Shown in pieces: positions 6,914 through 55,127 of a stretch of 64,000 bases of DNA. The stretch comes from a virus (taxonomy: Duplodnaviria; Heunggongvirae; Uroviricota; Caudoviricetes): the IMG/VR virus record IMGVR_UViG_2974574300_000001, positions 20,420 through 84,419 of that record; one strand, 5' to 3'. Every line of letters starts with the position of its first letter. Within the stretch, counting starts at the first letter, position 1. A program made the translations under genes and the position numbers. The notes beneath the pieces are model-generated. The model did not search any database. It worked only from the letters and a program-made list of their open reading frames with translations, and was not told the DNA's origin.

Positions 6914-8275
6914 ATGGCAGATTACAAATTGAGTGAATTAAACTCAATCGATACAATCCGTTCAGACGACCTTCTTCATGTCAGGGTTAAAAAGAGACCT
7001 GAAATGCTGGGTGATGAAGACCGTCGAATGACCTATCAAGACTTCTTAGCATCTTTTAAGCTTGAAAGATTTGTTCAGATTGCTGGTAGTACTATGACTG
7101 GTGACTTAGGGATTGTTAAGTTACTTTATGGTGGTAAGGCAGTCTTTGACCCTACAGGCTCTTCCGAGATTACTATGGGGGATGTTTTAAAGACTTTTAA
7201 AATTAATGCAAATGGTCTTAAACTAACTATTGCAGATGCTTCAAGGTCTGCAACTGTTTATCATACTCTTAATAAGCCAAGTCCTAATGAGCTTGGGATG
7301 AGAACTAATGAAGAGAATGATGCAAGATATGCAAGGCTTGCTGTCACAAACACATTCTCTGGGACTCAGAACATTCAAGGTGATGTTAACTTACTTCGCC
7401 TTAGAAACCAAAATGCAAATAATGCACAATATATTGAAGGTGTAGACCTAGATGGCTCGGCTAGATGGTTGGTTGGTATTAGTAAAAATGGTTCTGATGC
7501 AGTGCAGTTGTACAATAATAAATATGACTCAGCTTTGACTATTGCAAGTAATATCTCTGTTAATAAGTCTTTAGCAATCACTGGTCAAGTCCAACCTTCG
7601 GATTTCTCTAACTTAGATGCTAGATACTTTACTCAGACAGTTGCTAATCAGAGATTTGCACAGTTAGCTGGGAATAACACTTTTACAGGTGCTAATACTT
7701 TCACTAACCTTGTTGTTAAGAAGAATGCTAATGCTATTACTTTGCAGAATACTGATGCAGGTACAGCACTTTATATTCTCGGTAAGAGGTCTGATGGAAC
7801 AAATAAATGGTATGTTGGTACAGATTCTGATGAGACACGTCTGAACATTTATAACTACCTTACAGGTTCACAGGTTTCACTAGGGACTACTATTGGTATT
7901 AATAAAACCGTGCAAATCAATGGTCAAGTTCAGCCATCTGATTGGACTAACATTGACTCTAGATATATTCCGGCAGCAACATTAAGTACAATTGCAAGAA
8001 CTAATGCACAAAATACTTTTAATGGTGCGCAAACAGTTGTTAGTGATGGCGAAGGTTTAGTTATTAAAAACTCTACTCAGAATAGGCCATTGTATATTCG
8101 TGGTAAGGACGCTGCCAATGTATCAAGATGGTGGTTAGGTGTTGGTGACCCAAATTCTACTGATGTAGCCTTAAACAACAGCTTCTCTGGCACTCAGTTA
8201 ATTTTAGGTAACTCATCTGCAAGTATCAATAAGACATTAACCCTAGCAGCAGATTCAACCTTCAGATTTCTCTAA
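6914..8275 (+). CDS. tail fiber protein with triplicated ~115 aa module
   Basis: 453 aa; internal repeats each ending GQVQPSD(F/W)(S/T)N(L/I)D(A/S)RY; third copy runs across the stop into the frame of the next ORF. Confidence 0.55.
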   Translation: MADYKLSELNSIDTIRSDDLLHVRVKKRPEMLGDEDRRMTYQDFLASFKLERFVQIAGSTMTGDLGIVKLLYGGKAVFDPTGSSEITMGDVLKTFKINANGLKLTIADASRSATVYHTLNKPSPNELGMRTNEENDARYARLAVTNTFSGTQNIQGDVNLLRLRNQNANNAQYIEGVDLDGSARWLVGISKNGSDAVQLYNNKYDSALTIASNISVNKSLAITGQVQPSDFSNLDARYFTQTVANQRFAQLAGNNTFTGANTFTNLVVKKNANAITLQNTDAGTALYILGKRSDGTNKWYVGTDSDETRLNIYNYLTGSQVSLGTTIGINKTVQINGQVQPSDWTNIDSRYIPAATLSTIARTNAQNTFNGAQTVVSDGEGLVIKNSTQNRPLYIRGKDAANVSRWWLGVGDPNSTDVALNNSFSGTQLILGNSSASINKTLTLAADSTFRFL

Positions 8276-8321: not shown

Positions 8322-9257
8322 ATGCTTGCTTATTCTTCTGGCACTGGTACAGAGGTAGGTGATAGTGATGGCATTGCTTGGAATGCTAAAACTGGTCTGT
8401 ATAATGTTACAGGTTATAGTGGAGGCTCAACACAGCTTGTTTTCCAAATGTATCAGGGTGCAAGCTCTACTCCCTCTGCTCAATTAAAATTCAACTACAG
8501 GAATGGGGGTTTTTGGTATAGGTCATCAAGGGATGGTTTTGGTTTTGAAGAGGACTTCACACAAATTTATACAGAGAAGTATAAACCAACTCCTTCAGCT
8601 ATTGGTGCATACACTAAAGCAGAGACTGACCAGAAGATTGCAGAAGCGATTAGTGACTCTACAGACCTTAATAAAATCTATCCAGTAGGTATTGTAACGT
8701 GGTTTAACAGTAATGTTAACCCTAATACCGCACTTCCTGGATTAACTTGGACGTACCTGAACAATGGTGTAGGTAGGACAATCAGGGTTGCAGCAGCTAA
8801 TGGTTCAGATGTTGCTACAACTGGAGGCTCAGATTCTGTTACGTTAGCAGTTGGAAACTTACCTTCACACACTCATAGTTTCTCTGCGACAACCTCTAGC
8901 TTTGACTACGGTACTAAAACCACTAACACTACTGGTGCTCACACCCACTCAGTGAGTGGTTCTACTAACAACACTGGTGCTCATACACATACAGTTGGTG
9001 GTCGTTATGGTGGTGACTCTATCGGTGGTAAACATCGTGTTCAGGTCTCAGGGACTGAACAGGTATCTAGCTATGATGGTGCTCACTCTCACACTGTATC
9101 TGGTACTGCTGCCTCTAACGGAAACCATGCTCACACAGTTGGTATTGGTGCTCACAGTCATACAGTTAGTGGTAACACTGGTGGTACAGGTTCTGGTTCA
9201 GCATTTAGTGTAACTAACCAGTTCTATAAGCTGATGGCTTGGGTAAGAACTGCTTAA
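8322..9257 (+). CDS. tail fiber protein, HxH-tip paralog; frame open upstream from 8247 and possibly fused to 6914..8275
   Basis: 311 aa from first ATG; C-terminal FDYGTKTTNTTGAHTHSVSGSTNNTGAHTHTVGGRYGGDSIGGKHRVQVSGTEQVSS nearly identical to 5697..6863; upstream in-frame translation QQIQPSDFSNLDARYYTQSTANSRY continues the repeat of the preceding gene. Confidence 0.55.
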   Translation: MLAYSSGTGTEVGDSDGIAWNAKTGLYNVTGYSGGSTQLVFQMYQGASSTPSAQLKFNYRNGGFWYRSSRDGFGFEEDFTQIYTEKYKPTPSAIGAYTKAETDQKIAEAISDSTDLNKIYPVGIVTWFNSNVNPNTALPGLTWTYLNNGVGRTIRVAAANGSDVATTGGSDSVTLAVGNLPSHTHSFSATTSSFDYGTKTTNTTGAHTHSVSGSTNNTGAHTHTVGGRYGGDSIGGKHRVQVSGTEQVSSYDGAHSHTVSGTAASNGNHAHTVGIGAHSHTVSGNTGGTGSGSAFSVTNQFYKLMAWVRTA

Positions 9258-16081: not shown

Positions 16082-16597
16082 TCAACTTAGTTTTGCAAAC
16101 TCTCCGTGGAGTTTAATAGCAGCTTCACAGTAAGCTTTATGGGCTTCTTCTTCCGTTGTGTATGTTCCTATATGTATAGTCTTGCCATTATGGTTAATCT
16201 GGGCTATCCACTTACCAGACTTGCTTCTACTTGTACCTTTTAAGTTTTTTGATGTTCTGGGTTGTCTCCTATTAGACATGTTCTGCTCTTTTGTGGCCTC
16301 TCTTAGATTGTCCCAAGCGTTATTCAAACCATCTCCATCTTTGTGGTCAATGTGTTTATCAGGCCACTTACCTGTCATCCAGAACCAAGCAATTCGGTGA
16401 TTACCTGTCCTGTATCCTAAAATCTGTGTGTGCATATACACACCAGACCTTGTGCGCTTAATTGCTCCGGCTTGGCTTCCAATGACCACCCTACTACTAT
16501 GTGGAGGTCTCCCAATCCATGTTAAGACCCCTGTTTCGGGGTCATAATCTAACCAAGACTTTAACTGTTCATGTGTGAATCCACAATCTCTCATCAA
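16082..16597 (-). CDS. HNH homing endonuclease with AP2-type DNA-binding domain
   Basis: 171 aa; YDPETGVLTW N-terminus, IDHKDGDGLNNAWDNL HNH region, C-terminal EEEAHKAYCEAAIKLHGEFA; free-standing, directly downstream of the polymerase. Confidence 0.65.
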   Translation of the reverse strand: MMRDCGFTHEQLKSWLDYDPETGVLTWIGRPPHSSRVVIGSQAGAIKRTRSGVYMHTQILGYRTGNHRIAWFWMTGKWPDKHIDHKDGDGLNNAWDNLREATKEQNMSNRRQPRTSKNLKGTSRSKSGKWIAQINHNGKTIHIGTYTTEEEAHKAYCEAAIKLHGEFAKLS

Positions 16598-17148
16598 TGT
16601 ACCTCATACCAGCTCTTACCAACTTTACCAGTACCAGTTACAAGCGTTTCCTCCTTAAGACCTAAGTTTCTTGATGCCTGACCATACATCCAGTCAATTA
16701 CTGCTTTAACATCCTGTGTCATCTCTTCTGGGCACTCCCAACTATTCTCGTCGTGGTATGCTAAAAGCAATCTAGCACCAATAGCTGGTTTTCGACCATT
16801 CAGCTTTGTAAGACCCTCTTCACAAGCCCTTCTACAAGCAAGGTTGATAGCTTCATTCTGAACCTGACTTTCCGAACCCATGAGCAAGTAATTTAAAAGT
16901 TTGTGCGGAGATTTACACCACAACCATGCACCTGCTACCTTTACAAAACCACCCTTAGAGATTGCAGCAGTCTTACCAAACACCTCTTCAAGAGCCTTCT
17001 TAGTGGCTTTGAAGTCTGCTTCCAAATTATCTATCAACTTTTTAATCTTAGGAAGGCGTACAAAGTAAGTTTGCTTAGTTAAAGCACCCTCTTCAGTAGT
17101 TGCAGCTTTAATCGTCTTAGCAAACTTCTCGTCACCTGCCCCAAACAA
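16594..17148 (-). CDS. DNA polymerase (family A), 3' exon
   Basis: 184 aa with FGAGDEKF (end of motif B) and LLAYHDE (motif C); separated from upstream pol ORF by an ORF-bearing intron-like insert. Confidence 0.7.
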   Translation of the reverse strand: MFGAGDEKFAKTIKAATTEEGALTKQTYFVRLPKIKKLIDNLEADFKATKKALEEVFGKTAAISKGGFVKVAGAWLWCKSPHKLLNYLLMGSESQVQNEAINLACRRACEEGLTKLNGRKPAIGARLLLAYHDENSWECPEEMTQDVKAVIDWMYGQASRNLGLKEETLVTGTGKVGKSWYEVH

Positions 17149-17951
17149 TACATCTGGTCAATACACTCGCAAGGTGTACCAGTTCTCTTATGAACTTCTC
17201 CGCATTTCTACGGAGTGTCGGACTATATCACGTAGCAGTGCTGCTACCGTTGCGCTTGGGATGGTCATTAGCTTACCACCCTACTCTACTCAGTTCATAC
17301 GTTAAGTATGCTTTTCGATAGTCTCTGAACGTTTCTCTGTTAGGAATCTCTATAATCATGTTATTTACTCAGGTAGTCAATTGCCCTTTGCATATTATCA
17401 ACGCTATCTGCAAGCAACCCCAAAGCTCTATTGCAATTGTGGCACAACATACCTCTTACTTTTCCGGTTTTGTGGTCATGGTCAACGACAAGTTTAGCCT
17501 TATGCCGTGAGCTATTCATGATAAAACCTTCACCGCCACAAATTTGACATTTGTAATCACAGTTACGAAGTAGGGTTTCAACCTCTTCTCTTTCTAAACC
17601 ATATGTTCTCAGGTAGTAATTCTTAACTCTACCTTTCTCTCCGCAATGCGAAGAACAATAAACTTGCCTTGCTGTTCTAGGCATGAACACCTTCTCACAG
17701 CTAGGACATTTCTTAGTAAGAACCCTATGTTCTGCTCTTCTGTCAAATTTTAATACGCAACTTCTGCACCGTTTTTGATTGTATTGGTATGGTTTAAACT
17801 CTGCACCACACTCAGTACACAATCTCTCTTTGTAACCTGCCATTGTCTCTCTCCTTTGTTTTAGGAGTCCTAACAGAGACTTCGCTGCTGATTACCATGT
17901 CTTTACAGACTTAGGCTTCCAGCAATTCACAACGTTTTACATGCGCCACTG
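17149..17951 (-). mobile_element. putative group I intron in the DNA polymerase gene (boundaries approximate)
   Basis: ~0.8 kb insert with stops in all pol frames, carrying an endonuclease ORF; joining ...RKKAKNGIYA to LLFGAG reconstructs the pol-A motif B spacing. Confidence 0.5.
17361..17843 (-). CDS. intron-encoded endonuclease (endonuclease VII-like HNH)
   Basis: 160 aa with multiple CxxC pairs and VVDHDHKTGKVRGMLCHNCNRALG, resembling T4 endo VII-type HNH. Confidence 0.6.
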   Translation of the reverse strand: MAGYKERLCTECGAEFKPYQYNQKRCRSCVLKFDRRAEHRVLTKKCPSCEKVFMPRTARQVYCSSHCGEKGRVKNYYLRTYGLEREEVETLLRNCDYKCQICGGEGFIMNSSRHKAKLVVDHDHKTGKVRGMLCHNCNRALGLLADSVDNMQRAIDYLSK

Positions 17952-20124
17952 ACGCATAAATACCATTCTTGGCTTTCTTACGACCCTTACTAATTTCTTG
18001 AAGAAGGTTTGTATCCTGAGTAGCTCGACAAGTCAAGATATCTTCCTCTTTATTAAGGCTGAAGTAGATACTATTTAAAGTATGTGCATCAGTTCCTGAG
18101 TACACCACGTACAAGTCATTTTCCGAATCATAATGCAAATACTTGTCAATCTCTGGGTTTAGATACTGGTCAAAATGTTTACAATAGTATCTACCATCCT
18201 CTTGTTTGACAAACTCAACCTCTTCTTTACCCTCTGTCACTGCTTTGGTGAACTCTTTATCACCCATAAAGTTACACAGCAGTACAAGTTGCGCGCTATT
18301 CATATCTGCTGAAACAATATTAGTCCCTTCTTCACAAGTCCACACCTCCCGCATAGGTGCTCCATAGACAGCAGCACCAGATGGTACGTTTACAATACCA
18401 TATTGTGTCATACGCCCAGTTGAAGTACCAAACACCATTGCACCAGCACTAAGGCGACCATCAGGACGAATCTGGTTCAACCAACCTTTTTCATCATCCT
18501 TTGAGTTCTCAATAGTTCTGCGTCTGTGCATCAAAGTATAGTATTTAGCAATCTTCTGTCCAAGCTCACCTTCAATCGTATCATAAGATGATTCAGTAAG
18601 TTTTGGCGAAGTACGGATTAAGCAAGGCTCAAGCAAATCTGTGTACTTCTTCACAGACCAGTTATGCTCAATGTACTGGACACCTTCATGTTCAACATAA
18701 CTCAAACCACACCGCTCAACCATTTCCTGCCACTTAGGATGTTTTGTAATCATCTTTTTATTGTCTTTGAAACGACAAACTTTGACAGGACGACCATCTG
18801 AGTCTTTCTTGTAGTTCCAGTCATCTGGAATCCAACCAACTGATTTCAAGTAGTCTTTAACAACTGCTACCTGAGTCATACGAGAAACTTCGAACTCAAT
18901 TGGTGTATATGGTGCATCAATCAAACCTGTGTAGCGACTTGACTCAAGTTCAAAGTGGTTAACGACGTGGCTGTTATAGTACTTCACAGTTTTGACTGTT
19001 TTTACTGGTTTCCAGTCTTTGCATTTCTTACCAATCTTTGCGTTCAACTCATTGCAAATTGCACGAGCATCCTTCATTGCTACAAAGCCTTCCTTGTACT
19101 CTTCACCAGTTACAGTGTTGGTTGGTGTATAGCAATTTCTCTTTTCAATGTTAAAAATCTTTGTAGTTGGCTTACCAAATGGCTTGATTTCATAAGTTTG
19201 CATCTCACCGTTACGTACCTGCTGACGATACTTTGTTTTAGGGTACTTGGTAATTCTCTTCAGTCCATCTGCATGACCAAATGTTTCAACATACTCATTC
19301 CAAGCTTTTGCAAACTCTTCTCCAGTGACTTTACCTTTGGTCTTAATAGTTGGAGGAAGATGTGGTTCAACCTCTGAAGCAAGCTCATTAGTCAACTTGT
19401 CAAGTTCCTTCACATGGAACTCCATAAGCTCTTTATCAGCTTTCCAACCATTGATAGCTTGTTGACTCATCCAGAAAGATGTTTCTTTAGCTCGCATGTA
19501 GGTTTCATAAGTGTCTATGCCACACTTCTTAAGCTTGAGATACTCATTATCAAGTGCCCGTTTAGTTTTGGCGTTAATACGGATATCTTCTACAACACGA
19601 GTGAAGATTTCTGCATTCCACACACCCCAATGCTCAATCTCTGGTTTACGAACACCAACACGAGCACCCCATGCAGCCAAACCATGAGCACCTTTATAAC
19701 CCTTTGGAGTTGGTCTATCCATCCACTGAACACGAGACTGGATAAGAGAATCCTGAAAGAAATTACTCCACGGCTTACATTTTGGATTATCAAAGTTCCA
19801 TAAATCCGGTGCAATGTGATTGAAGACCCACCAGTCATAACCGAGGCCGTTATGGATACAAAGTCGTTTTGCCTTTAACGCAAACTCAACACCTTCACGT
19901 AAACCACCCTTAATGTACTTAGTGTACTTGTGACCGAGGATAGGCTCATCTGTAAAGACCCATACAGGTGGCTCTTCATCGTCAGATTTATAGTCTGCAA
20001 AGGCCATTACGTGAACTTTAGTGAACTCAAGGAGTAAACCATCAGTTTCTGTATCACCAACCAAATGTAAGTTTTTAAAATCTACGTTTTCCATTTTTAC
20101 TCCCTCTAAAATCATTAACCCCAT
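17952..20124 (-). CDS. DNA polymerase (family A), 5' exon with 3'-5' exonuclease region
   Basis: ORF 17911..20124 (737 aa); the last ~13 codons are probably intron sequence; C-terminus reaches the start of motif B (RKKAKNGIY). Confidence 0.7.
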
Positions 20125-25041: not shown

Positions 25042-25905
25042 ATGTCTAAAGTTGTTAAAATGAAAGCTCCGGTAGAGAAGTACAACGGTACTGAACGTCA
25101 AACTCTGCGTTACCTGCTGAAAGATGTCTGGTTTTATTACCTGAACACTTCACCACGTCCGGGAAAAGGTAAGTCTATTGATAAGAAATTCCCAGGAAAA
25201 GACTGTAACTACAGCGTATCAATTCTGGCAGAAGACGGTAACAAACTGTTTAAAGAGTTTACTAAGTCTAAGAAAAATCCAGAAGGCTGGGATAAAGTTA
25301 CTACTGAAGCAGTTGATGCAGATGACTTCGAAGAGAAGTTTGGTTGTAAACCACCTTTTGAAGCAGACACTTACTACATCTTGAAAGTAAGTCGTGCAGC
25401 AGCTTATAAAGATGGTGCTGTATGGACAGCTAAACAGTCATTCCCTGTTATGCTTATTGAAGAAGTAAATGGTAAGCGTGTAGCTGTTAAACAGCCGATG
25501 AAGAAAATCAAAGCTCAAGCATCTGATAAACATGAAGATGACAAGAACTATGATGTAATTCATCCAGATATTGCAGTTGGTAACGGTTCTTTTGGTAGTG
25601 TGATTCTTTCTACTCACTTCTACACTTTTGAGAACAATGTTCTGACAAAACCTATTCAGGAACAGTTTATCATTGATACTCTTGTACCTTACACTGGTGG
25701 TAACGGTGCTAATGGTGAACCTGAACTTGATGAAGATGAACTGGCTATGCTTGGTCTTGATGGTGTTGAAGATAACGGTGAAATCACTGAAGAAGACGCA
25801 ACAGACCATAAACCTTCGAATGCTTCTGATGATGGCGATGGCGATGACGAAGACTTGCCAGACCCAGATGACGAAGAAGATGAAGACTTCGATACAGAAG
25901 ACTAA
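25042..25905 (+). CDS. putative single-stranded DNA-binding protein with acidic C-terminal tail
   Basis: 287 aa; C-terminal ~50 residues strongly acidic (DDGDGDDEDLPDPDDEEDEDFDTED); sits between primase-helicase and flap endonuclease. Confidence 0.45.
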   Translation: MSKVVKMKAPVEKYNGTERQTLRYLLKDVWFYYLNTSPRPGKGKSIDKKFPGKDCNYSVSILAEDGNKLFKEFTKSKKNPEGWDKVTTEAVDADDFEEKFGCKPPFEADTYYILKVSRAAAYKDGAVWTAKQSFPVMLIEEVNGKRVAVKQPMKKIKAQASDKHEDDKNYDVIHPDIAVGNGSFGSVILSTHFYTFENNVLTKPIQEQFIIDTLVPYTGGNGANGEPELDEDELAMLGLDGVEDNGEITEEDATDHKPSNASDDGDGDDEDLPDPDDEEDEDFDTED

Positions 25906-25967: not shown

Positions 25968-27014
25968 ATGGAGAAGTACACATTAACAAAACTTCCCGAT
26001 TCAGTTACACATGTTTTTATTGACTCTGACAGCATTGCCTATAAAGGTGCTTGTGTAGTTGAGAAAGCAAAATATAAATACGTCAATAAACTCACAGCAG
26101 AAGAATCTGAACCATTTGACAATGCGAAAGATGCTGCAAGATGGTTAGCAGACCAGAGAATCCTTGTGGAAGAACTTGGCCTGACATTTGATGAAGATGA
26201 ATGGGAAAGACAGACTTGGAAAGAAGCTAAGAGTGAGAAAGAAGCTATCATGGCGACTCAACAGGTGCTTCAGGAATGGCTTAAGGTTGTTGGGAAAGAG
26301 AGAACTTGGGTAGGTTATTTAACAGAGAAAGGTGTGCATAAACATAAAGACATTAAAGGTCTTGAGCACCAATATCAAGGTAACCGCAAAGATGCTGTCA
26401 CACCAACACACTTAGTTGCTTGTCGTGAGTATCTTCTGTCAAGACCAGAGTTCAAATTGATTCTTGATGGATTTGAAGCTGACTCTATCGTTATTGCTAA
26501 AGCTGAAAAAATGGGAAAAAAGGCTGCCTTAATGAGTATTGATAAAGACCTTCGCCAAGCTGAAGGGACTTACTGCATTGATATGACCTATGAAAAGTCA
26601 CCTTTGATTTTCATTGCTGACAACAACGTAGGTGAAATTTGGGATTGCCCAATAAAATCTACACCAAAAGCTAAGAAGACAGTCGGGGTAGGTTTTAAAT
26701 TTCTTTGCTATCAAGCCGTGGCTGGTGATAATGCGGATAATTATTTTGGCTTAAAGGGTGTTGGCAAGGTTACTATAATGAAAGCCCTTGAAGGTAAAAC
26801 CACCTACAAAGAGTGTCTTGATGCAATTTATGAGCTTTATGCTAAGAAAGAGTCATATACTTATGTCTCGTGGGATGGTCAAACAATTACCAGAACACCT
26901 TTAGAGTTAATGCAACAACACTTTTTCTTAGCTTATCAGGAAAGAAATAAGAAAGACGATTTCACTTTTGATAAGTATGGATGGACACCAAATGTTAACC
27001 CAACAAACTCTTAA
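25968..27014 (+). CDS. flap endonuclease / 5'-3' exonuclease (FEN family)
   Basis: 348 aa with GDNADNYFGLKGVGKVTIMKAL (H3TH-type motif) and acidic active-site residues. Confidence 0.65.
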   Translation: MEKYTLTKLPDSVTHVFIDSDSIAYKGACVVEKAKYKYVNKLTAEESEPFDNAKDAARWLADQRILVEELGLTFDEDEWERQTWKEAKSEKEAIMATQQVLQEWLKVVGKERTWVGYLTEKGVHKHKDIKGLEHQYQGNRKDAVTPTHLVACREYLLSRPEFKLILDGFEADSIVIAKAEKMGKKAALMSIDKDLRQAEGTYCIDMTYEKSPLIFIADNNVGEIWDCPIKSTPKAKKTVGVGFKFLCYQAVAGDNADNYFGLKGVGKVTIMKALEGKTTYKECLDAIYELYAKKESYTYVSWDGQTITRTPLELMQQHFFLAYQERNKKDDFTFDKYGWTPNVNPTNS

Positions 27015-27491
27015 AGAATACCTACACTATGACCCGAAACAGGGGTCTTTACTTGGTTAGTTGATAGAAAAGGTAAGGCCAAAGCTGGCTCAGTAGCAGG
27101 TTTTAAACACCATAGCGGTTATATCTATATAAAACTCTTCGGAAAAAGATATGCAGCACACAGGCTGGCATTCTTGTATATGAAAGGATACCTCCCAAAA
27201 TTTGTTGACCACAAGAATTGTATCAGATACGACAACTGGTTCGACAATTTGAGAGAGTGTAGCAGGTCAGACAACAACTGTAATGCAGTCAAAAGAAGAG
27301 ATAATAAGTCTGGTGTGAAGGGTGTATATTACCACAAGCAAAGAGGTAGATGGGCTGCACAAGTTAAGCATAATAAAGTTTGCTACCATCTAGGTCTATT
27401 TGACTCTGTTGCTGAGGCTGAAGAAGTTGTCAAAAAGAAAAGAGAAGAACTTCATAGAGAGTTTACAAATCACGGAGAAGCTCATGAATGA
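26992..27491 (+). pseudogene. HNH-AP2 homing endonuclease interrupted by a frameshift near 27033-27040
   Basis: ATG at 26992 gives MLTQQTLKEYLHYDPKQGSLLG then stop; next frame continues PETGVFTWLVDRKGKAKAGSVAGFKHHSGYIYIKLFGKRYAAHRLAF into ORF 27174..27491; YDPETGV(F/L)TW matches the intact paralogs at 16082 and 40416. Confidence 0.55.
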
Positions 27492-27988
27492 TTAAAGTTA
27501 AAGGTTTTGGGAGTTGTCCAACTTATGGACATTGGATTTCACTATGTGGTGAAGTTGACCCAGCAAAGCACTTTGGTTTTGTCTACCTAGTGTACTGCAA
27601 AAAGACTGGACAGTACTATTTGGGTAAAAAACAGCTTAACAGTGTGACCAAAAGAAAAGTTGCTGGTAAGACTCGGAAGAAGATAGTCACTAAGGAAAGT
27701 GATTGGATGACTTATGAGACTTCTTCTGAGTATATCAAAAAAGATATTGAAAGTTTTGGAAAAGAATTTTTTGACTTTTACATTATCCAAACCTACTACA
27801 CAAAAGGTGGTCTAGTTTATGGTGAAGCAAACCTTCAACATAAGTTCGATGTAATGACAAAAAGGATTGACTCGAAGCTCAGACTCTTCTACAATGCCAA
27901 TATTGCAGCAATTAAGTTTATTACCAAAGAAACTTATGAAGATGCTGAAAAAAGAATCCATAAGGTAATGAAAGTAAATTGTGCTTGA
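27488..27988 (+). CDS. putative GIY-YIG-like endonuclease
   Basis: 166 aa; FVYLVYCKKTGQYYLGKK resembles GIY-(x9-10)-YIG, then basic region. Confidence 0.35.
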   Translation: MIKVKGFGSCPTYGHWISLCGEVDPAKHFGFVYLVYCKKTGQYYLGKKQLNSVTKRKVAGKTRKKIVTKESDWMTYETSSEYIKKDIESFGKEFFDFYIIQTYYTKGGLVYGEANLQHKFDVMTKRIDSKLRLFYNANIAAIKFITKETYEDAEKRIHKVMKVNCA

Positions 27989-34974: not shown

Positions 34975-35716
34975 TAACAGGCTCTATAGCTCATCTAAAA
35001 CGTGCCTAAACAGGGAAACTCTACAGATGTAGACAATCCTGTGCTAAATGATGTACGATGTAAGAAACTATACAACATAGGAGTCTTACATGCCAAACTA
35101 TCACGTCACTGAAGATGGAAAAGTCTTTAGGGAAAATGGTGTAGAGCTTACGCAGTGGAAATCCAACACTGGGTATATGAAAGTGAGGTTTTACGGTAAG
35201 AAGAATCGTGACATGTATGTCCACAGGTTAGTTGCTGAGAAATATGTACCTAACCCAAATAATCTTCCAATTGTAAAACATAAGGACGATAACAAACTAA
35301 ATAACCACGCATCTAACTTAGAATGGGGTACTCATTCTGAGAATGCTAAAGAAGGTTATGAGAACGGATGCTACAAGTTCCACAAGCGTTCATATGCCGT
35401 GAAAGCCACACACAAAGTGACAAAGGAAGTTATTGTTGCTAAGTCAATACGAGAGTTATCCAATATACTTGGACACAATCGCAAGACCATCTCTTCAATA
35501 TTGAAGGGTGTAAAAGAGCATAATAACTTCGAATATGAGTTTGAATACATCTAAATGCCGAACGACTAACCGTGATGAATGTAGCGGTGTAGGGTCAAGC
35601 GACTCGAAATGGTACGCTACTTAGAAATAAGTAGAAGATATAGTCTGGACTTACTGGCGACAGTAAGCAGCTTGAATAAAGCGGGGTAAGCTTAGCGAAC
35701 TTACCTGAACAACAAG
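34975..35716 (+). mobile_element. putative group I intron in nrdD carrying an HNH endonuclease ORF
   Basis: 742 nt insert; upstream exon ends in T, insert ends in G; splicing gives ...VISPMG-CRAFLSPYHNEYGEEFYVGRANIGAVSLNLP and a 714 aa product. Confidence 0.6.
35090..35554 (+). CDS. intron-encoded HNH homing endonuclease
   Basis: 154 aa with VHRLVAEKYV...KHKDDNKLNNHASNLEWGTHSEN (HNH-type His/Asn motif). Confidence 0.6.
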   Translation: MPNYHVTEDGKVFRENGVELTQWKSNTGYMKVRFYGKKNRDMYVHRLVAEKYVPNPNNLPIVKHKDDNKLNNHASNLEWGTHSENAKEGYENGCYKFHKRSYAVKATHKVTKEVIVAKSIRELSNILGHNRKTISSILKGVKEHNNFEYEFEYI

Positions 35717-36664
35717 TGTAGAGCATTTTTATCACCATACCATAACGAATATGGTGAAGAGTTTTATGTAGGTCGTGCTAACATTGGTGCTGTATCTTTG
35801 AACTTACCAATGATTTACCAGTATTCTAAAGAGAATGGCTTAGATTTCTGGAAAGAGCTTGATAAGTACCTAGAAATGATTCGCAGCTTCCACAAGAAAC
35901 GTTACGAAATGATTGCTAATATGCCAGCAAGTTCTAACCCTCTTGCATTCACACAAGGTGGTCTGTACAAAGGGAATAAGAAACCTACTGACAAGGTTGG
36001 CTGGGATATCGTGAAGTCCTTCACAGCTTCTTTTGGGGTTACTGCGCTTGATGAGCTAGATGTTCTTGCTGAAGGTAAACGACTTCATGAAGTTGGAAGC
36101 TGTAGTTTTGCATATGATGTTCTGGAATATATCAACATGAAGACTGAAGAGTTTAAAAATGAAGATGGCTTCTTATATGCAGTCTATGGCACTCCAGCAG
36201 AATCACTTTGTGGAACTCAGCTAAAACAGTTCAGAGATATGTTTGGCGTTATCAAAGGCGTTTCTGACAAGGAATACTTTACAAACAGCTTCCATATGAA
36301 TGTTGCAGCCGACATTACACCATTTGAGAAGCAGGACTTAGAAGAACCCTTCTTCCATATCTGTAGAGGCGGCAGAATCCAGTATGTAAGAGTGGCTAAT
36401 CCAGAAAACTTACCAGCACTTAAGAGTTGTATTACAAGAGGGATGTTGAAAGGTTTCTATCAGGGACTTAACTTTGACTTAGCAATCTGTGAGCATTGTG
36501 GCAACAGACCAAAGGCTGATGTTGAAGAATGTGAGGTTTGTCATTCACACGATATCTCTGTGATTAACAGGGTGTGCGGGTACTTGTCATTCACAAAAAT
36601 TAAAGGTCAGTCTCGAATGAATGACGCTAAGATGGCAGAAATTAAGGATAGGGTTTCTATGTAG
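35717..36664 (+). CDS. nrdD: anaerobic ribonucleotide reductase (class III), 3' exon
   Basis: Frame open from 35696; contains a four-Cys cluster and C-terminal glycyl-radical motif RVCGYL. Confidence 0.75.
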   Translation, partial: CRAFLSPYHNEYGEEFYVGRANIGAVSLNLPMIYQYSKENGLDFWKELDKYLEMIRSFHKKRYEMIANMPASSNPLAFTQGGLYKGNKKPTDKVGWDIVKSFTASFGVTALDELDVLAEGKRLHEVGSCSFAYDVLEYINMKTEEFKNEDGFLYAVYGTPAESLCGTQLKQFRDMFGVIKGVSDKEYFTNSFHMNVAADITPFEKQDLEEPFFHICRGGRIQYVRVANPENLPALKSCITRGMLKGFYQGLNFDLAICEHCGNRPKADVEECEVCHSHDISVINRVCGYLSFTKIKGQSRMNDAKMAEIKDRVSM

Positions 36665-40415: not shown

Positions 40416-40907
40416 ATGAATAAGGGTTATTTTGAAAGATACCTAATATATGAACCAGATACAGGTTTATTAATTTGGAGAGTAACCCTTTGCAGTACCG
40501 CTATTGCTGGTAATGTGGCTGGCACAAGGTCTAAGAAGGGTTATATCCAAGTCCAGATAAATAAGAAGAGGTACTATGCACATAATATTGCATGGATTAT
40601 GTCTGGAGGTGAGATACCAAGTGGATATGAGATAGACCACATAGACCTTGATAAATCTAATAATAAGTTGGAGAATTTAAGACTTAGCACAAAGTCACAA
40701 AATCAGAGGAATAGGGGTATATACAAGAATAATAAAACTGGTGTGAAGGGTGTAAGTTTTTGTAAACAAACAGGTCTTTACAAAGCAAGAGTCATGCTTT
40801 ACCATAAAGAATACTTTTGTGGAAGATTTAAAACGGTAGAAGAAGCAAAAGAAGCTGTAATTAAAAAGCGAATAGAACTTCATGGTGAGTTTGCAAGACA
40901 TAACTAA
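40416..40907 (+). CDS. HNH homing endonuclease with AP2-type DNA-binding domain
   Basis: 163 aa; YEPDTGLLIW N-terminus, YEIDHIDLDKSNNKLENL HNH region, C-terminal EEAKEAVIKKRIELHGEFA; sits between the Prs-like and NAMPT-like genes. Confidence 0.65.
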   Translation: MNKGYFERYLIYEPDTGLLIWRVTLCSTAIAGNVAGTRSKKGYIQVQINKKRYYAHNIAWIMSGGEIPSGYEIDHIDLDKSNNKLENLRLSTKSQNQRNRGIYKNNKTGVKGVSFCKQTGLYKARVMLYHKEYFCGRFKTVEEAKEAVIKKRIELHGEFARHN

Positions 40908-51458: not shown

Positions 51459-51665
51459 ATGCTTTACAGTCGTGAATTGATGGCTACAACTAACGTTAAC
51501 ACAAATGCAAAACGTTTTTACATGCAAATTTGTGGCGTATGGTCTAGAATATCAGAAGCTGACTATTGCAACTATGTAGAAACAGCTATAAACTCTAATT
51601 GCTACCTTACAAGAAATACTAAGAAGTTTACAAGGCAAACAGCGATTTACTATTACGATAAATAA
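51459..51665 (+). CDS. small early-type protein
   Basis: 68 aa; ATG with ctggag RBS. Confidence 0.4.
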   Translation: MLYSRELMATTNVNTNAKRFYMQICGVWSRISEADYCNYVETAINSNCYLTRNTKKFTRQTAIYYYDK

Positions 51666-51753
51666 AAAGTACTTTACATGGGGCTTAAAAGTCTGTAAAG
51701 TAAGCCCCAGATAAAGAGCTTTACCACTCAATCCTAAATTGGAGAACTTAAAA
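51666..51753 (+). promoter_or_regulatory. cassette A copy 1 (stem-loop plus conserved leader)
   Basis: ctttacatggggcttaaaagtctgtaaagtaagccccagataaagagctttaccactcaatcctaaattggag then ATG. Confidence 0.5.
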
Positions 51754-52134
51754 ATGGCATACCGCGCACCGAAATTCATCAATAAAGAAAATTTTCGTAA
51801 TGTATTAGAGAAGGCGCTTGATGAAAAATTTAACGGCAAAATAATTGTTGTTCACTCGTTCAATTTCAAGTATGATATCAACGGGAATAAAATCAACCAT
51901 TACACGGCAACCATGTTAGATGGCACTCTTTCAAGTGAAAAAACAATTCTCCATGCACTTGCTGGACGTGGAAAAAACCTGATAAGATGCGATAAGAGAC
52001 GTTATCAAGGTGGCGCATATGGTTATGATGATGCTATTTATCATCTTGAAAATATGGGCTATCAAGTAGAAAAAGCTGGAGTATCACAAATCATCGGGAG
52101 TGATGGTTATGTAACAACTTTCAAAATTAGATAA
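51754..52134 (+). CDS. small early-type protein
   Basis: 126 aa from ATG after the cassette (track start 51739 is an alternative start inside the cassette). Confidence 0.4.
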   Translation: MAYRAPKFINKENFRNVLEKALDEKFNGKIIVVHSFNFKYDINGNKINHYTATMLDGTLSSEKTILHALAGRGKNLIRCDKRRYQGGAYGYDDAIYHLENMGYQVEKAGVSQIIGSDGYVTTFKIR

Positions 52135-52223
52135 TAAAGTACTTTACAGGGGGCTTATAGTTCAATAAAGTAAGCCCCAGATAAAGAGCTTTACCACTAA
52201 ATCCTAAATTGGAGATTCAAAAA
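52135..52223 (+). promoter_or_regulatory. cassette A copy 2
   Basis: ctttacagggggcttatagttcaataaagtaagccccagataaagagctttaccactaaatcctaaattggag. Confidence 0.5.
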
Positions 52224-52514
52224 ATGGCTATTATCAAAAACGTTGTAATTCCTGCAAAAACTCGTGATGACGCTCGCATCATGGCGAAAAAGTTAGGCGG
52301 GAAAGTGGTTGACAATGGGAAACAATCTGCTGTAAGGTGGGGCGTGAAGGTTGATAAACAGTTGAAGTTAAAAAATTCACCAATAAACCTTTTTACATGT
52401 GTAAACACTATCGGGAAGACAAATGTATACACGAAAAAGGCATATATTAGACGCGTAGCCTTAACATCTCCCATTCGTACAATGAGAAGCTATGCAAAGC
52501 TAAAAATTAACTGA
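52224..52514 (+). CDS. small early-type protein
   Basis: 96 aa from ATG at 52224 (track 52209 trimmed). Confidence 0.4.
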   Translation: MAIIKNVVIPAKTRDDARIMAKKLGGKVVDNGKQSAVRWGVKVDKQLKLKNSPINLFTCVNTIGKTNVYTKKAYIRRVALTSPIRTMRSYAKLKIN

Positions 52515-52601
52515 TAAAGTACTTTACAGGGGGCTTAAAAGTTGATATCTTAAGCCCCAGATAAAGAGCTTTACCACTAAATCCTAAATTGGAGATTCAA
52601 A
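52515..52601 (+). promoter_or_regulatory. cassette A copy 3
   Basis: ctttacagggggcttaaaagttgatatcttaagccccagataaagagctttaccactaaatcctaaattggag. Confidence 0.5.
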
Positions 52602-53114
52602 ATGAAAAATGTAGACGCTACCTTTGAAGTTGTAAAAGAAAAATTTTCCATCATCTACGAAGCGGTAAATTGCTATGAAGCAAGCCATAATCTTGATAAT
52701 TGGAAGTTTACAGATGACCATCAAGGCGGCGTGACTGTTAAAAATCCTAACTGTCAGTATAATGAATTTAAATATGCAATCCCTTTGCATTACAGCCTTA
52801 AACAGCTTTCAAGTGACTATGCAAAACAAGGCCGGGAAAATCCATCAAAAGATGCTTACATTAGCTTACAGAAAGAATTAGAAAGAGATTTAGAGGCTTC
52901 AGAATACGACCTTGCCGCGAAAGTTGTCGATGCAAATGGCAACACGGTTTTAGAGAGTTTTTATCTAGGATATGCCTTTGACTGGTGCTATAGTGACGGT
53001 GATGATTTAGAGGAAAGACTAAAAGAAGAGGTGAGCAATTCAGACGCAGAAACTGAAGTATTAGAACGTTTGGAATCATTAAAAGACTCAGTGATGAATA
53101 TCTTTAAGAACTAA
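52602..53114 (+). CDS. small early-type protein, acidic
   Basis: 170 aa ORF directly after cassette A copy 3. Confidence 0.4.
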   Translation: MKNVDATFEVVKEKFSIIYEAVNCYEASHNLDNWKFTDDHQGGVTVKNPNCQYNEFKYAIPLHYSLKQLSSDYAKQGRENPSKDAYISLQKELERDLEASEYDLAAKVVDANGNTVLESFYLGYAFDWCYSDGDDLEERLKEEVSNSDAETEVLERLESLKDSVMNIFKN

Positions 53115-53200
53115 AGAGATTTCTTTACACGGGGTTATCAAGCTGATAAGATAGCCCCAGATAAAGAGATTTATCAACTGTCCTAAACTGGAGATTCAAA
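53115..53200 (+). promoter_or_regulatory. cassette A copy 4 (diverged)
   Basis: ctttacacggggttatcaagctgataagatagccccagataaagagatttatcaactgtcctaaactggag. Confidence 0.45.
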
Positions 53201-53497
53201 ATGAAATTATCAAATAAAGTTCGTGAAAATCTAAGCAAGTTACTAAACAAAATTGATTTCATTGAAACATCAAGGAATAATCATGATGTTATGGAATGGT
53301 TACATGGAAAAATAAAAGGCCGTCGTGTAGTGATTTGCTTATGGAATAGTTGCAGGGAGTATAAAAAACCTGTATTGCAAGTCAATATTTATGATGACAC
53401 TTTTAAAAGTCCAGTAAAGTCTAAAAGCGATTTATTAGAATCCTATGAGATAACTGTAAATGGCAAAGTATCACGTAAAGAGGAAACACCATGTTAA
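53201..53497 (+). CDS. small early-type protein
   Basis: 98 aa ORF after cassette A copy 4. Confidence 0.4.
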   Translation: MKLSNKVRENLSKLLNKIDFIETSRNNHDVMEWLHGKIKGRRVVICLWNSCREYKKPVLQVNIYDDTFKSPVKSKSDLLESYEITVNGKVSRKEETPC

Positions 53498-53823
53498 TGA
53501 CTGGTATCACTGCAATCATTGCCATTTTCGCGCTATATAAGGCATATAAAGCCTATAATCTAGCAAATAAGGCAATCACGCAACAGGTTAGCAATAGCCT
53601 TGTAGAGAGCTTTCTAGAGCGCCTCAGTGATGAGCAAATAAAGCGGCTAGAGATGAGCTTCAGATATAAAGCGAAAACCTATCAGATAAGTGACATCTTC
53701 AAAGATGATTTTCAGTTAGTCGATGATTATAATTCACTGATAAATGCTTTAAATATCAGTGACTTAAAAGACTACTACGCTGTAATTGTTCAAGAATTGA
53801 GCAAACGAAAACAAAGTGTTTGA
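53491..53823 (+). CDS. small early-type protein
   Basis: 110 aa; start overlaps upstream stop; hydrophobic N-terminus. Confidence 0.4.
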   Translation: MLMTGITAIIAIFALYKAYKAYNLANKAITQQVSNSLVESFLERLSDEQIKRLEMSFRYKAKTYQISDIFKDDFQLVDDYNSLINALNISDLKDYYAVIVQELSKRKQSV

Positions 53824-53913
53824 CACTGGTTTTTAGATAGATTAAATTACACATCAACGGGGAGGGAATGACCTTCCCCACTAAATAAAGTCCTTAAACT
53901 AGGAGAGTCTAAA
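53820..53913 (+). promoter_or_regulatory. cassette B copy 1: sigma70-like promoter, leader stem-loop, RBS
   Basis: ttgaca-ctggtttttagatagat-taaatt, then ggggagggaatgaccttcccc hairpin and aggag before ATG 53914. Confidence 0.55.
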
Positions 53914-54186
53914 ATGTATACTACTAACAATGGTCGTACTTTAAATGTAACTTTACGTCACTATGTAGACGGTGTAATGCACTTTGAGGATTTACGGGCT
54001 GAACAACATATCTTAGATTGGCAAGTAGCAGGACTCCAAAAAACTGCTACGGGATACGGTAAAAAGATTCCAACCAGTTGGAAAGTACACTACGAAGGAC
54101 GTTTGCGCAGAATTTATCAAGATGTATGTAGTAATAGTGCATCAAGTTACATCATAGTAAAAGGTAAAAAGCTGCATTTAGTATAA
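53914..54186 (+). CDS. small early-type protein
   Basis: 90 aa ORF after cassette B. Confidence 0.4.
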   Translation: MYTTNNGRTLNVTLRHYVDGVMHFEDLRAEQHILDWQVAGLQKTATGYGKKIPTSWKVHYEGRLRRIYQDVCSNSASSYIIVKGKKLHLV

Positions 54187-54271
54187 AGTACTTTACAAGG
54201 GGCTTAAAAGTCTGTAAAGTAAGCCCCAGATAAAGAGCTTTACCACTAAATCCTAAATTGGAGATTCTAAA
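54187..54271 (+). promoter_or_regulatory. cassette A copy 5
   Basis: ctttacaaggggcttaaaagtctgtaaagtaagccccagataaagagctttaccactaaatcctaaattggag. Confidence 0.5.
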
Positions 54272-54676
54272 ATGGCTATTAACAACCGTGAATTAGCAAT
54301 CTTAAAAGCACGTTTGACCGTTAACCGGATTAATGTTATTACGTCATCAGCACCGGATGAAACATTGCATAACATTATTGGGAAGATTCAAAGTGTTATC
54401 TTAGACGTTGAAAATGTAAAAAGCTCATTGGCTGACGTTGCAGCAGGTATCACGCTAGACGGCGCACAATATGAAATGTCCGACATGTTAGGCAAATCAA
54501 AGGTAATGAATAAAGAATTAGACTTGAAAATGTTTCGATTTGCTGTCAAAGTGTGGCTATCTGTCGAGTATGACGCTAATTTTGCAATCGCTGATTTCTT
54601 TGCCACTTGGTTACAACGTAATTTGACAAATCACGATTTTCGTGATGTCTGTGATGCAATTTATGCAGAACTCTAA
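54272..54676 (+). CDS. small early-type protein
   Basis: 134 aa ORF after cassette A copy 5. Confidence 0.4.
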   Translation: MAINNRELAILKARLTVNRINVITSSAPDETLHNIIGKIQSVILDVENVKSSLADVAAGITLDGAQYEMSDMLGKSKVMNKELDLKMFRFAVKVWLSVEYDANFAIADFFATWLQRNLTNHDFRDVCDAIYAEL

Positions 54677-54684
54677 AAATTTTG

Positions 54685-54779
54685 TTGACACTGGTTTTTA
54701 TATAGATTAAATTACTAATCAACGGGGAGGGAATGACCTTCCCTACTAAATAAAGTCCTTAAACTAGGAGATTCTAAAA
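54685..54779 (+). promoter_or_regulatory. cassette B copy 2: promoter, leader stem-loop, RBS
   Basis: ttgaca-ctggtttttatatagat-taaatt, then ggggagggaatgaccttccc hairpin and aggag. Confidence 0.55.
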
Positions 54780-55127
54780 ATGGCTTATGTAACCGTAATT
54801 ACTGATAAAGCTGGCGCATCTTGGTCAACTCAGGTTAGTGATAAGATGTCACCTATGCAGTGTCTAAAATACTTTGAGCAATGGAATAAAGGCGAAGATG
54901 TAAGCCCCTTTCAAGTGATGCAGGTTATCCATGTAGATAACGAAGGGAATAAAACGACCTTAAATAGTGAGTACTACGCAAGCCGTTTTGAAACGAGAAG
55001 TAAAGCAATGAAGCTCTTACGTGAGGCCGGATATGGTCACATTGCCGCGATAATCTGGGATGACCTTCTAAAAAGTCAACGTATCAGCTATGTAAAACCT
55101 GAAAAATATTCATCAGTTAATCAATAA
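54780..55127 (+). CDS. small early-type protein
   Basis: 115 aa ORF after cassette B copy 2. Confidence 0.4.
   Translation: MAYVTVITDKAGASWSTQVSDKMSPMQCLKYFEQWNKGEDVSPFQVMQVIHVDNEGNKTTLNSEYYASRFETRSKAMKLLREAGYGHIAAIIWDDLLKSQRISYVKPEKYSSVNQ

Follow-up and report, generated by a model that had tools for sequence, protein, structure and literature searches.

A single-base frameshift in a Felix O1 ORF106-type homing endonuclease gene: recent decay or an error in the record

The window analyzed here, a 64-kb stretch of DNA, belongs to a Felix O1-like myovirus of the genus Felixounavirus, and the host genus of the Felix O1-like phage is given as Salmonella. An 801-nt query around the site of interest matched 115 phage records, the best matches (98.8 to 98.9%) being ST11, Felix O1, FO1a, Mushroom, VSe11/102, and PMBT20. 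At this site, an HNH-AP2 gene broken into two reading frames lies between a gene for a 5'-3' exonuclease and a gene for a SegE-like GIY-YIG endonuclease (Table 1). The upstream gene had been labeled a flap endonuclease in the original prediction; Pfam gives this label weak backing (a 5_3_exonuc match of 21 bits versus a cutoff of 40), although relatives annotate the gene as exodeoxyribonuclease or 5'-3' exonuclease. The downstream gene, which relatives label either "GIY-YIG homing endonuclease" or "NAD synthetase," begins with an ATG that overlaps the HNH stop codon (ATGA). The HNH ORF thus sits between two genes and overlaps both of them, reaching 23 nt into the exonuclease end, in another frame, on one side and into the start of the GIY-YIG gene on the other, and is in neither an intron nor an intein.

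Table 1. Features of the frameshifted endonuclease locus and its paralogs (window coordinates)
Feature	Position	Strand	Basis
Intact HNH-AP2 paralog beside split DNA polymerase gene	16082..16597	-	ORF, Pfam, alignment
Upstream 5'-3' exonuclease gene, 348 aa	25968..27014	+	ORF list
Truncated N-terminal frame of HNH-AP2 gene, 22 codons then TAG	26992..27060	+	Sequence reading
29-nt core (28 nt in the window), CACTATGACC[C]CGAAACAGGGGTCTTTAC	27025..27052	+	Contig alignments
Hairpin, 17 nt past the exonuclease stop codon	27031..27047	+	Folding
Lesion, CCC versus CCCC in relatives (1-nt deletion, -1 frame change)	27033..27035	+	Alignments, census
Open frame, endonuclease residues 15 to 166	27033..27491	+	Sequence, Pfam, alignment
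Downstream SegE-like GIY-YIG endonuclease gene	27488..27988	+	Pfam SegE_GIY-YIG, 93.8 bits
Intact HNH-AP2 paralog, 163 aa	40416..40907	+	ORF, Pfam, alignment

The first of the two frames opens at the ATG at 26992, reads MLTQQTLKEYLHYDPKQGSLLG, and stops at 27058-27060. The second reads PETGVFTWLVDRKGK...EAHE and has as its tail the ORF at 27174..27491. The original prediction had described this arrangement, with an ATG overlapping the end of the upstream gene, a short frame followed by a stop, and that ORF as the continuation, and we saw each of these elements. It had also placed a single missing base in the C-run, and direct alignment locates the loss there: the run is CCCC in Felix O1, FG1m, PMBT20, and fjerdesal and CCC in the window, at codon 15 of the gene. 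In an alignment with Felix O1, FG1m, and ST11, the C-run is the sole length difference, with CCC in both the window and ST11. When one base is put back into the run, the two frames join to encode a protein of 166 aa with 99% identity to Felix O1 ORF106 (NP_944978.1), and nucleotides 27033-27491 have zero differences from Felix O1, ST11, and PMBT20.

The restored protein bears out the HNH-AP2 homing endonuclease identity first proposed for it. Its residues 54 to 96, encoded at ~27150-27278, match Pfam HNH_3 (PF13392) at 45 bits (cutoff, 24.8; E value, 8.2e-12), while the match of residues 107 to 143 (~27309-27419) to AP2 (PF00847), at 31.2 bits (E value, 2.7e-7), falls just under the cutoff of 33.3. 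No significant sequence match was found among solved structures. The paralogs that had been claimed at 16082 and 40416 are present and intact; they are 38% and 40% identical, respectively, to the restored protein, with the YDPETG/YEPDTG motif in common. Their AP2 scores lie on either side of the cutoff (38.1 bits for the former and 20.9 bits for the latter), and the catalytic-motif residues D73, H74, N82, N86, N95, and N98 are invariant in the restored protein, ORF106, and both paralogs. Judged from its sequence, the gene is an ORF106-type free-standing homing endonuclease gene, whose product would comprise an N-terminal YDPETG region, an HNH_3 nuclease domain, and an AP2-like DNA-binding domain. 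With its base restored, it is a gene of a known kind, and the frameshifted form, too, has a precedent in the truncated CDS annotated for ST11.

The gene is part of a mobile segment. About 493 nt are absent in many Felixounaviruses (EC106, Alf5, JH2, UAB_69, and others), which have 1008 nt where the window has 1501, and in these cassette-free phages the exonuclease gene abuts the GIY-YIG gene. The empty site of EC106 aligns with the window up to ~26969 and again from ~27485; the cassette therefore brings its own version of the last ~15 codons of the exonuclease gene, and these codons (from ~26970) are part of the HNH cassette and not of the backbone. Three or more heterologous cassettes, among them types A, B, and C, are found at this same site with the same flank. 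Nine metagenome/Logan contigs encode exactly the window's exonuclease protein, and in the three Logan/ENA contigs shown for this exonuclease allele, the C-run reads CCCC and is followed by a different, intact, 163-aa HNH_3 gene, which starts at the same ATG and diverges from the Felix O1 type at 27057. A third cassette type occupies the site in other contigs. Presence/absence polymorphism, exchanged flanks, and the position outside any intron or intein identify the gene as a free-standing homing endonuclease cassette of ~0.5 kb that is mobile, with cleavage and homing as its predicted activities.

The surrounding genome is itself a mosaic. When ST11, PMBT20, and Felix O1 are taken for comparison, the window resembles PMBT20 at 1 to 8 kb and ST11 at 8 to 9.5 kb and at 34 to 36 kb; it is privately diverged from 11 kb to position 27024 and, from 27033, essentially identical to all three. 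Up to 27056, the window and one contig (L023) agree almost perfectly, and both parental types read alike from 27025 to 27056. Because the window is L023-like up to 27056 and carries the Felix O1-type cassette thereafter, the ancestry switch lies within 27025-27056, an interval that includes the deletion and the whole of the 29-nt core described below. Felix O1 ORF106 itself, annotated as "HNH endonuclease," occupies the same place between exonuclease and GIY-YIG genes, with 0 nt differences from the window over 27033-27600; the window differs from it in the one C missing at codon 15 and in the L023-like exonuclease allele upstream. The truncated "homing endonuclease" CDS of ST11 (MF370225; ASR76761.1) has the identical CCC lesion and identical downstream sequence, but its upstream flank is of the Felix O1 type, and ST11 has many other frameshifts that are absent from the window. 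The window and ST11 differ by 5 SNPs within the 55 nt upstream of the deletion and so represent different upstream haplotypes, each of which has a CCCC counterpart (Felix O1 and, in part, contig L016). Given these differing haplotypes, shared descent of the CCC needs a crossover within 27025-27032.

The missing C falls within a 29-nt core (CACTATGACCCCGAAACAGGGGTCTTTAC). At least four HNH cassettes that diverge elsewhere have this core in identical form. The fourth core-bearing type has an entirely different upstream flank, indicating another locus, sometimes on the same contig, and the window's own paralog at 16082..16597 contains the core once more, as an exact copy that reads CCCC (positions 16524-16546). 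In its intact form, the core folds into a hairpin (GACCCC-GAAACA-GGGGTC) with a perfect 6-bp stem (-12.6 kcal/mol; z = -2.3), compared with 5 bp and -8.8 kcal/mol for the form in the window. The intact form of Felix O1 is flagged as terminator-like, and a T-rich tail follows the hairpin. Synonymous recodings that fold equally well make up 0.01% with usage-weighted codon choice and 0.6% with uniform codon choice. The paralog at 40416..40907 also forms a hairpin at these codons, but a different and weaker one that is offset by one position, and an Rfam search matched no family. About 40 distant HNH homologs encode YDPETG by other codons, with no such hairpin and little structure. A family-wide conserved RNA hairpin can be rejected on this basis, and the core is instead a lineage-specific island of DNA identity.

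It is conceivable that the core is a functional DNA or RNA element with two roles: shielding the selfish gene from read-through transcription, as a terminator or attenuator, and providing a recombination point for cassettes. Its identity across at least four divergent cassettes, including paralogs at other loci, the rarity of equivalent recodings, and the terminator-like flag favor such a role; the distant homologs that lack the hairpin do not, and the identity would be explained equally well by one ancestral accident that gene conversion then spread. We consider a functional core unlikely. If it were functional, the missing C would be a mutation in a hot spot of regulation and recombination; it would weaken the hairpin and silence the enzyme, with some leaky expression perhaps persisting through a -1 slip on C_CCG.

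The position of the deletion inside the switch interval raises the question of whether the exchange itself was mutagenic. One C could have been lost during the recombination or double-strand-break repair that brought a Felix O1-type cassette into a backbone like that of L023; the loss in ST11 would then be an unrelated error or a later acquisition. The ancestry switch is confined to 27025-27056 with the deletion inside it, and the hairpin at this site, with C4 in one arm and G4 in the other, is of the quasi-palindromic kind that favors slippage and template switching. The co-location is less striking, however, because this interval is the last homology before the heterologous cassettes, and any swap would be forced to cross there. 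Moreover, ST11 has the deletion without the junction, so that this route would call for one more crossover or else for a coincidence. We regard this special case of a real mutation as quite improbable.

As sequenced, the gene would be a null allele: translation would end after 22 codons, the domains would be left without a usable start, and no functional enzyme would be expected. The first in-frame restart is at TTG 27174 or ATG 27180, at about residue 62, and neither codon has a Shine-Dalgarno sequence. A functional restart product is unlikely, since it would start inside the HNH_3 match and without such a sequence.

Recoding would be another way for the split gene to be expressed, and the original prediction had offered a frameshift-regulated gene as one of three readings. 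The split would then be functional or regulatory, bridged by a programmed or leaky -1 ribosomal frameshift in the 8-codon overlap at 27033-27058. The shift needed is indeed -1, and the overlap contains two single-tRNA slip sites. A slip at C_CCG (27033-27036) would give back the wild-type peptide exactly; one at G_GGG (27042-27045) would replace ET with KQ and alter nothing else. Homing endonucleases also need little expression. Yet the overlap, which reads C CCG AAA CAG GGG UCU, contains no X XXY YYZ heptamer, so that only single-tRNA slips are possible; the RNA from 27028 to 27130 folds no better than shuffled sequences (z = -0.42) and has no Rfam match; and the deletion weakens the local hairpin rather than creating one. 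Nor is the split conserved, as relatives are in frame almost without exception and ST11 alone shares it. With the -1 frameshift sites of dnaX and of the phage tail-chaperone G/GT genes, the window has in common only the direction of the required shift; a slippery heptamer, a stimulator, and conservation are all missing. We therefore reject programmed frameshifting, and -1 recoding of any kind seems to us very improbable. The other two of the original readings, decay and sequencing error, both remain live.

An in-frame gene is the norm among relatives. The original prediction had suggested comparing the site in related phages, and this comparison gives CCCC nearly throughout and CCC in ST11 only. 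Of the 38 GenBank phage records with full-length matches to the 100 nt surrounding the site, 36 span 101 nt, i.e., have one extra base, and ST11 is the only one of the 38 with CCC, although some of these records are duplicates of one phage and the counts are not all independent. The run is also CCCC in 12/12 IMG/VR copies and in 5/5 metagenome copies, and no CCC copy was found in IMG/VR or in the metagenomes and Logan/ENA contigs examined. GTDB genomes contained no copy of the site. The same gene is broken elsewhere in other records: an A has been lost from an A5 run in FG1m, and other indels truncate the gene in two unverified drafts, GE_vB_B1 and GE_vB_NS7 (the former reads CCCC but has a different 1-nt loss, of a G elsewhere). 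Products of 103 aa are called in FG1m and these two drafts alone, all with different lesions, and a 58-aa product is called only in ST11; a 105-aa HNH product is not on record.

The window contains only two ORF-breaking indels in its 64 kb, and both are exactly common to ST11. The second is a 2-nt loss at ~8250 (GCAGGGCAG to GCAGCAG; GGG to G), which splits a tail fiber gene into ORFs at 6914..8275 and 8322..9257. At this locus, the window and ST11 have ~25 derived SNPs in common, which points to common ancestry there. The broken gene encodes gp77, a tail fiber confirmed as a virion protein of Felix O1 (PMC3185647). The C-terminal ORF has no credible ribosome-binding site, products of 453 aa and 311 aa are not on record, and an IMG/VR scan for the site found neither form, the search pattern being too specific. 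It is hard to see how a phage with such a lesion would be viable, which hints at an artifact common to both records.

The C may be missing from the phage DNA itself or only from the record. If the record is at fault, the phage truly has CCCC and an intact gene, and the assembly has undercalled a 4-base run inside a GC-rich hairpin, with both the CCC and the tail fiber loss recurring in ST11 through a common platform, pipeline, or laboratory. A change in homopolymer length, here from C4 to C3, is a classic type of error. ST11, the only other carrier, has at least 15 private 1- to 2-nt deletions and many split genes, essential ones included, so that its CCC could be one more error in an error-rich record. 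The truncation of this gene by other indels in unverified drafts fits the same pattern; GEC_vB_B1, by its name apparently a resequenced GE_vB_B1, spans the normal 101 nt. Likewise, the co-shared tail fiber frameshift strikes a confirmed virion protein, and CCC is absent from the environmental copies described above. There is also no further decay downstream of the lesion: positions 27033-27600 (458 nt of them within the gene) are identical to functional alleles, and a genuine pseudogene would be compatible only with a very recent event. Sister Felix O1-like phages were sequenced by a Russian group on the Ion Torrent PGM, a platform prone to homopolymer errors.

Other observations speak against an artifact. 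Over ~19 kb in which the window is nearly identical to PMBT20, there are 0 indels among 974 homopolymer runs of at least 3 nt, and a 7-kb comparison with contig L023 turns up, apart from the cassette, just two further indels, both of them in-frame repeat changes. A context-driven error is disfavored by the copy of the 23-nt context at 16524-16546, which is identical and which this assembly correctly gives as CCCC. The loss of two bases from GGG in the tail fiber gene is untypical of a homopolymer undercall, and two phages that were sequenced by Ion Torrent, VSe11 and VSe102, include the additional base or bases at each of the two lesion sites. Direct copying of ST11 is not a ready explanation either: a private 8-SNP patch of ST11 (8591-8648) is absent from the window, so that the tail fiber block is not simply a copy of ST11, and gap filling of the window from the ST11 sequence can be rejected for that block. 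Finally, two independent random errors at the two positions of ST11 would be expected at a frequency that we estimate as ~1e-7, a negligible chance. An artifact would therefore require a specific common cause, and no pipeline explanation that fits was found.

Weighing these points, we give an even chance to a real, recent null mutation, a figure that includes the small share for a deletion at the recombination junction. An error in the record is a serious possibility as well, if one that we would put short of even. If the mutation is real, one C would have been lost very recently from the CCCC at codon 15 of a Felix O1-type cassette, and the CCC cassette would now be found on two backgrounds, those of ST11 and the window, as a result of recombination inside the shared 29-nt core. 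The transfer would probably have run from the Felix O1-type background into the L023-like one. Such a course, invasion followed by decay, would be nothing out of the ordinary for a selfish endonuclease gene.

The cassette has several counterparts among known systems. Like the Seg and Mob free-standing homing endonuclease genes of T4-like phages, it is intergenic, occurs sporadically among close relatives, and has mosaic flanks, and its GIY-YIG neighbor is SegE-like. The HNH genes of Felix O1, unlike those of the T4-like phages, are known from sequence, with no cleavage site or homing reported (PMC3185647), and six HNH endonuclease copies have been described in that phage (Whichard et al. 2010, PMC3185647). 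Compared by description, the HNN/HNH-AP2 endonucleases of the Xanthomonas oryzae phages Xp10, OP1, and Xop411 are similar in domain plan, in having multiple dispersed copies, and in a history of gain and then decay (PMC2248197). Intact, truncated, and degenerate copies exist in those phages, and gain followed by stepwise decay has been documented for their HNH-AP2 genes (PMC2248197). Their degenerate copies have lost whole domains, however, whereas the gene in the window has a single 1-nt lesion.

The significance of the lesion as such is small, because it is routine for a known selfish endonuclease gene to turn up in frameshifted form, be it through decay or through an error in the record. 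If the lesion is real, the phage still has two intact paralogs and the GIY-YIG gene. For annotation, the gene is best described as a frameshifted ortholog of Felix O1 ORF106, and the base needs checking before deposit or use. The tail fiber frameshift matters more to users of the phage, since it decides between the reliability of the record and an unusual split fiber. A by-product of this analysis is a map of a locus with three states, being either empty or occupied by one of several heterologous HNH cassettes, and with a 29-nt hairpin-forming exchange point. This map makes the swapping of homing endonuclease cassettes in Felix O1-like phages directly testable.

The interval between the exonuclease and GIY-YIG genes (window 26970-27485; also loci L115 and L023-L025, the last three being contigs with the window's own exonuclease allele) is a three-state locus: it is empty in EC106 and many coliphages, or it is occupied by the Felix O1-type HNH gene (166 aa), by a second HNH type (163 aa), or by a third type. 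The final ~15 codons of the exonuclease gene are supplanted by cassette sequence. The downstream gene (27488-27988, 166 aa) encodes a SegE-like GIY-YIG endonuclease (Pfam, 93.8 bits); its designation as "NAD synthetase" in the RefSeq Felix O1 entry and many derived records is probably a propagated misannotation.

At least four HNH cassettes that otherwise diverge from one another, among them paralogues at different loci of one contig, share an exactly identical 29-nt DNA stretch at their 5' ends; this island folds into a 6-bp GC hairpin. Its codon choice is extreme when set against synonymous recoding, and distant homologues are without the element.

Features of the window (positions in nucleotides unless stated)
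Feature	Position	Remark
PMBT20-like block	1-8 kb	
ST11-like blocks	8-9.5 kb; 34-36 kb	
Privately diverged 16-kb block	11 kb to 27024	
Block near-identical to all Felix O1-group genomes	27-32 kb	
gp77-type tail-fibre gene, two pieces	6914..8275; 8322..9257	break at 8248-8251
HNH-AP2 gene	16082..16597 (minus-strand region)	abuts DNA polymerase piece
DNA polymerase gene, two pieces	16594..17148; 17911..20124 (minus strand)	
Endonuclease VII-like ORF	17361..17843 (minus-strand region)	between the polymerase pieces
29-nt island copies	27025-27052; 16524-16546 (minus)	also at compared loci L008-L019, L023-L025 and L029-L033
~95-105-nt repeats, examples	51663-51758; 52134-52237; 52514-52604; 54183-54285	

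Across its whole length (1-64000), the window shows block mosaicism. Among the comparison sequences, the ST11 record (MF370225) should be treated as low-accuracy sequence; it carries at least 15 private 1- to 2-nt deletions relative to the window, and its annotations are split for rIIA (three pieces), the tail fibre (three), NadV (two), NrdG (two), Prs, and a baseplate wedge gene.

A 2-nt deletion (GCAGGGCAG to GCAGCAG) divides the tail-fibre gene of the window in two, while in Felix O1, FO1a, PMBT20, and VSe11/102 it is one ORF (781 aa in PMBT20). The identical deletion occurs in ST11, and the two sequences have ~25 SNPs in common just 3' of it. Because the matches of several phages to the window (e.g., UAB_Phi87) begin exactly at 8250, this position may be a module boundary. 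No good ribosome-binding site lies upstream of the ATG at 8322 that opens the second piece.

At 25831-25846, an in-frame 6-nt (GATGGC) difference in repeat number from ST11, PMBT20, and contigs L023-L025 affects ORF 25042..25905, where it lies in the acidic C-terminal tail of the encoded protein (287 aa). A family of ~95-105-nt repeats, placed between small genes, extends from about 51660 to 54780, and several PMBT20 sites are 87-92% identical to its members.

The region holding the divided DNA polymerase gene (16082-20124) diverges by 12-18% from PMBT20 and is largely missing in ST11. A segment of ~748 nt at 34978-35724 is missing in ST11 and present in PMBT20, where the matching position is annotated as an HNH homing endonuclease flanked on each side by an annotated half of the anaerobic ribonucleotide reductase large subunit; it looks like another mobile insertion.
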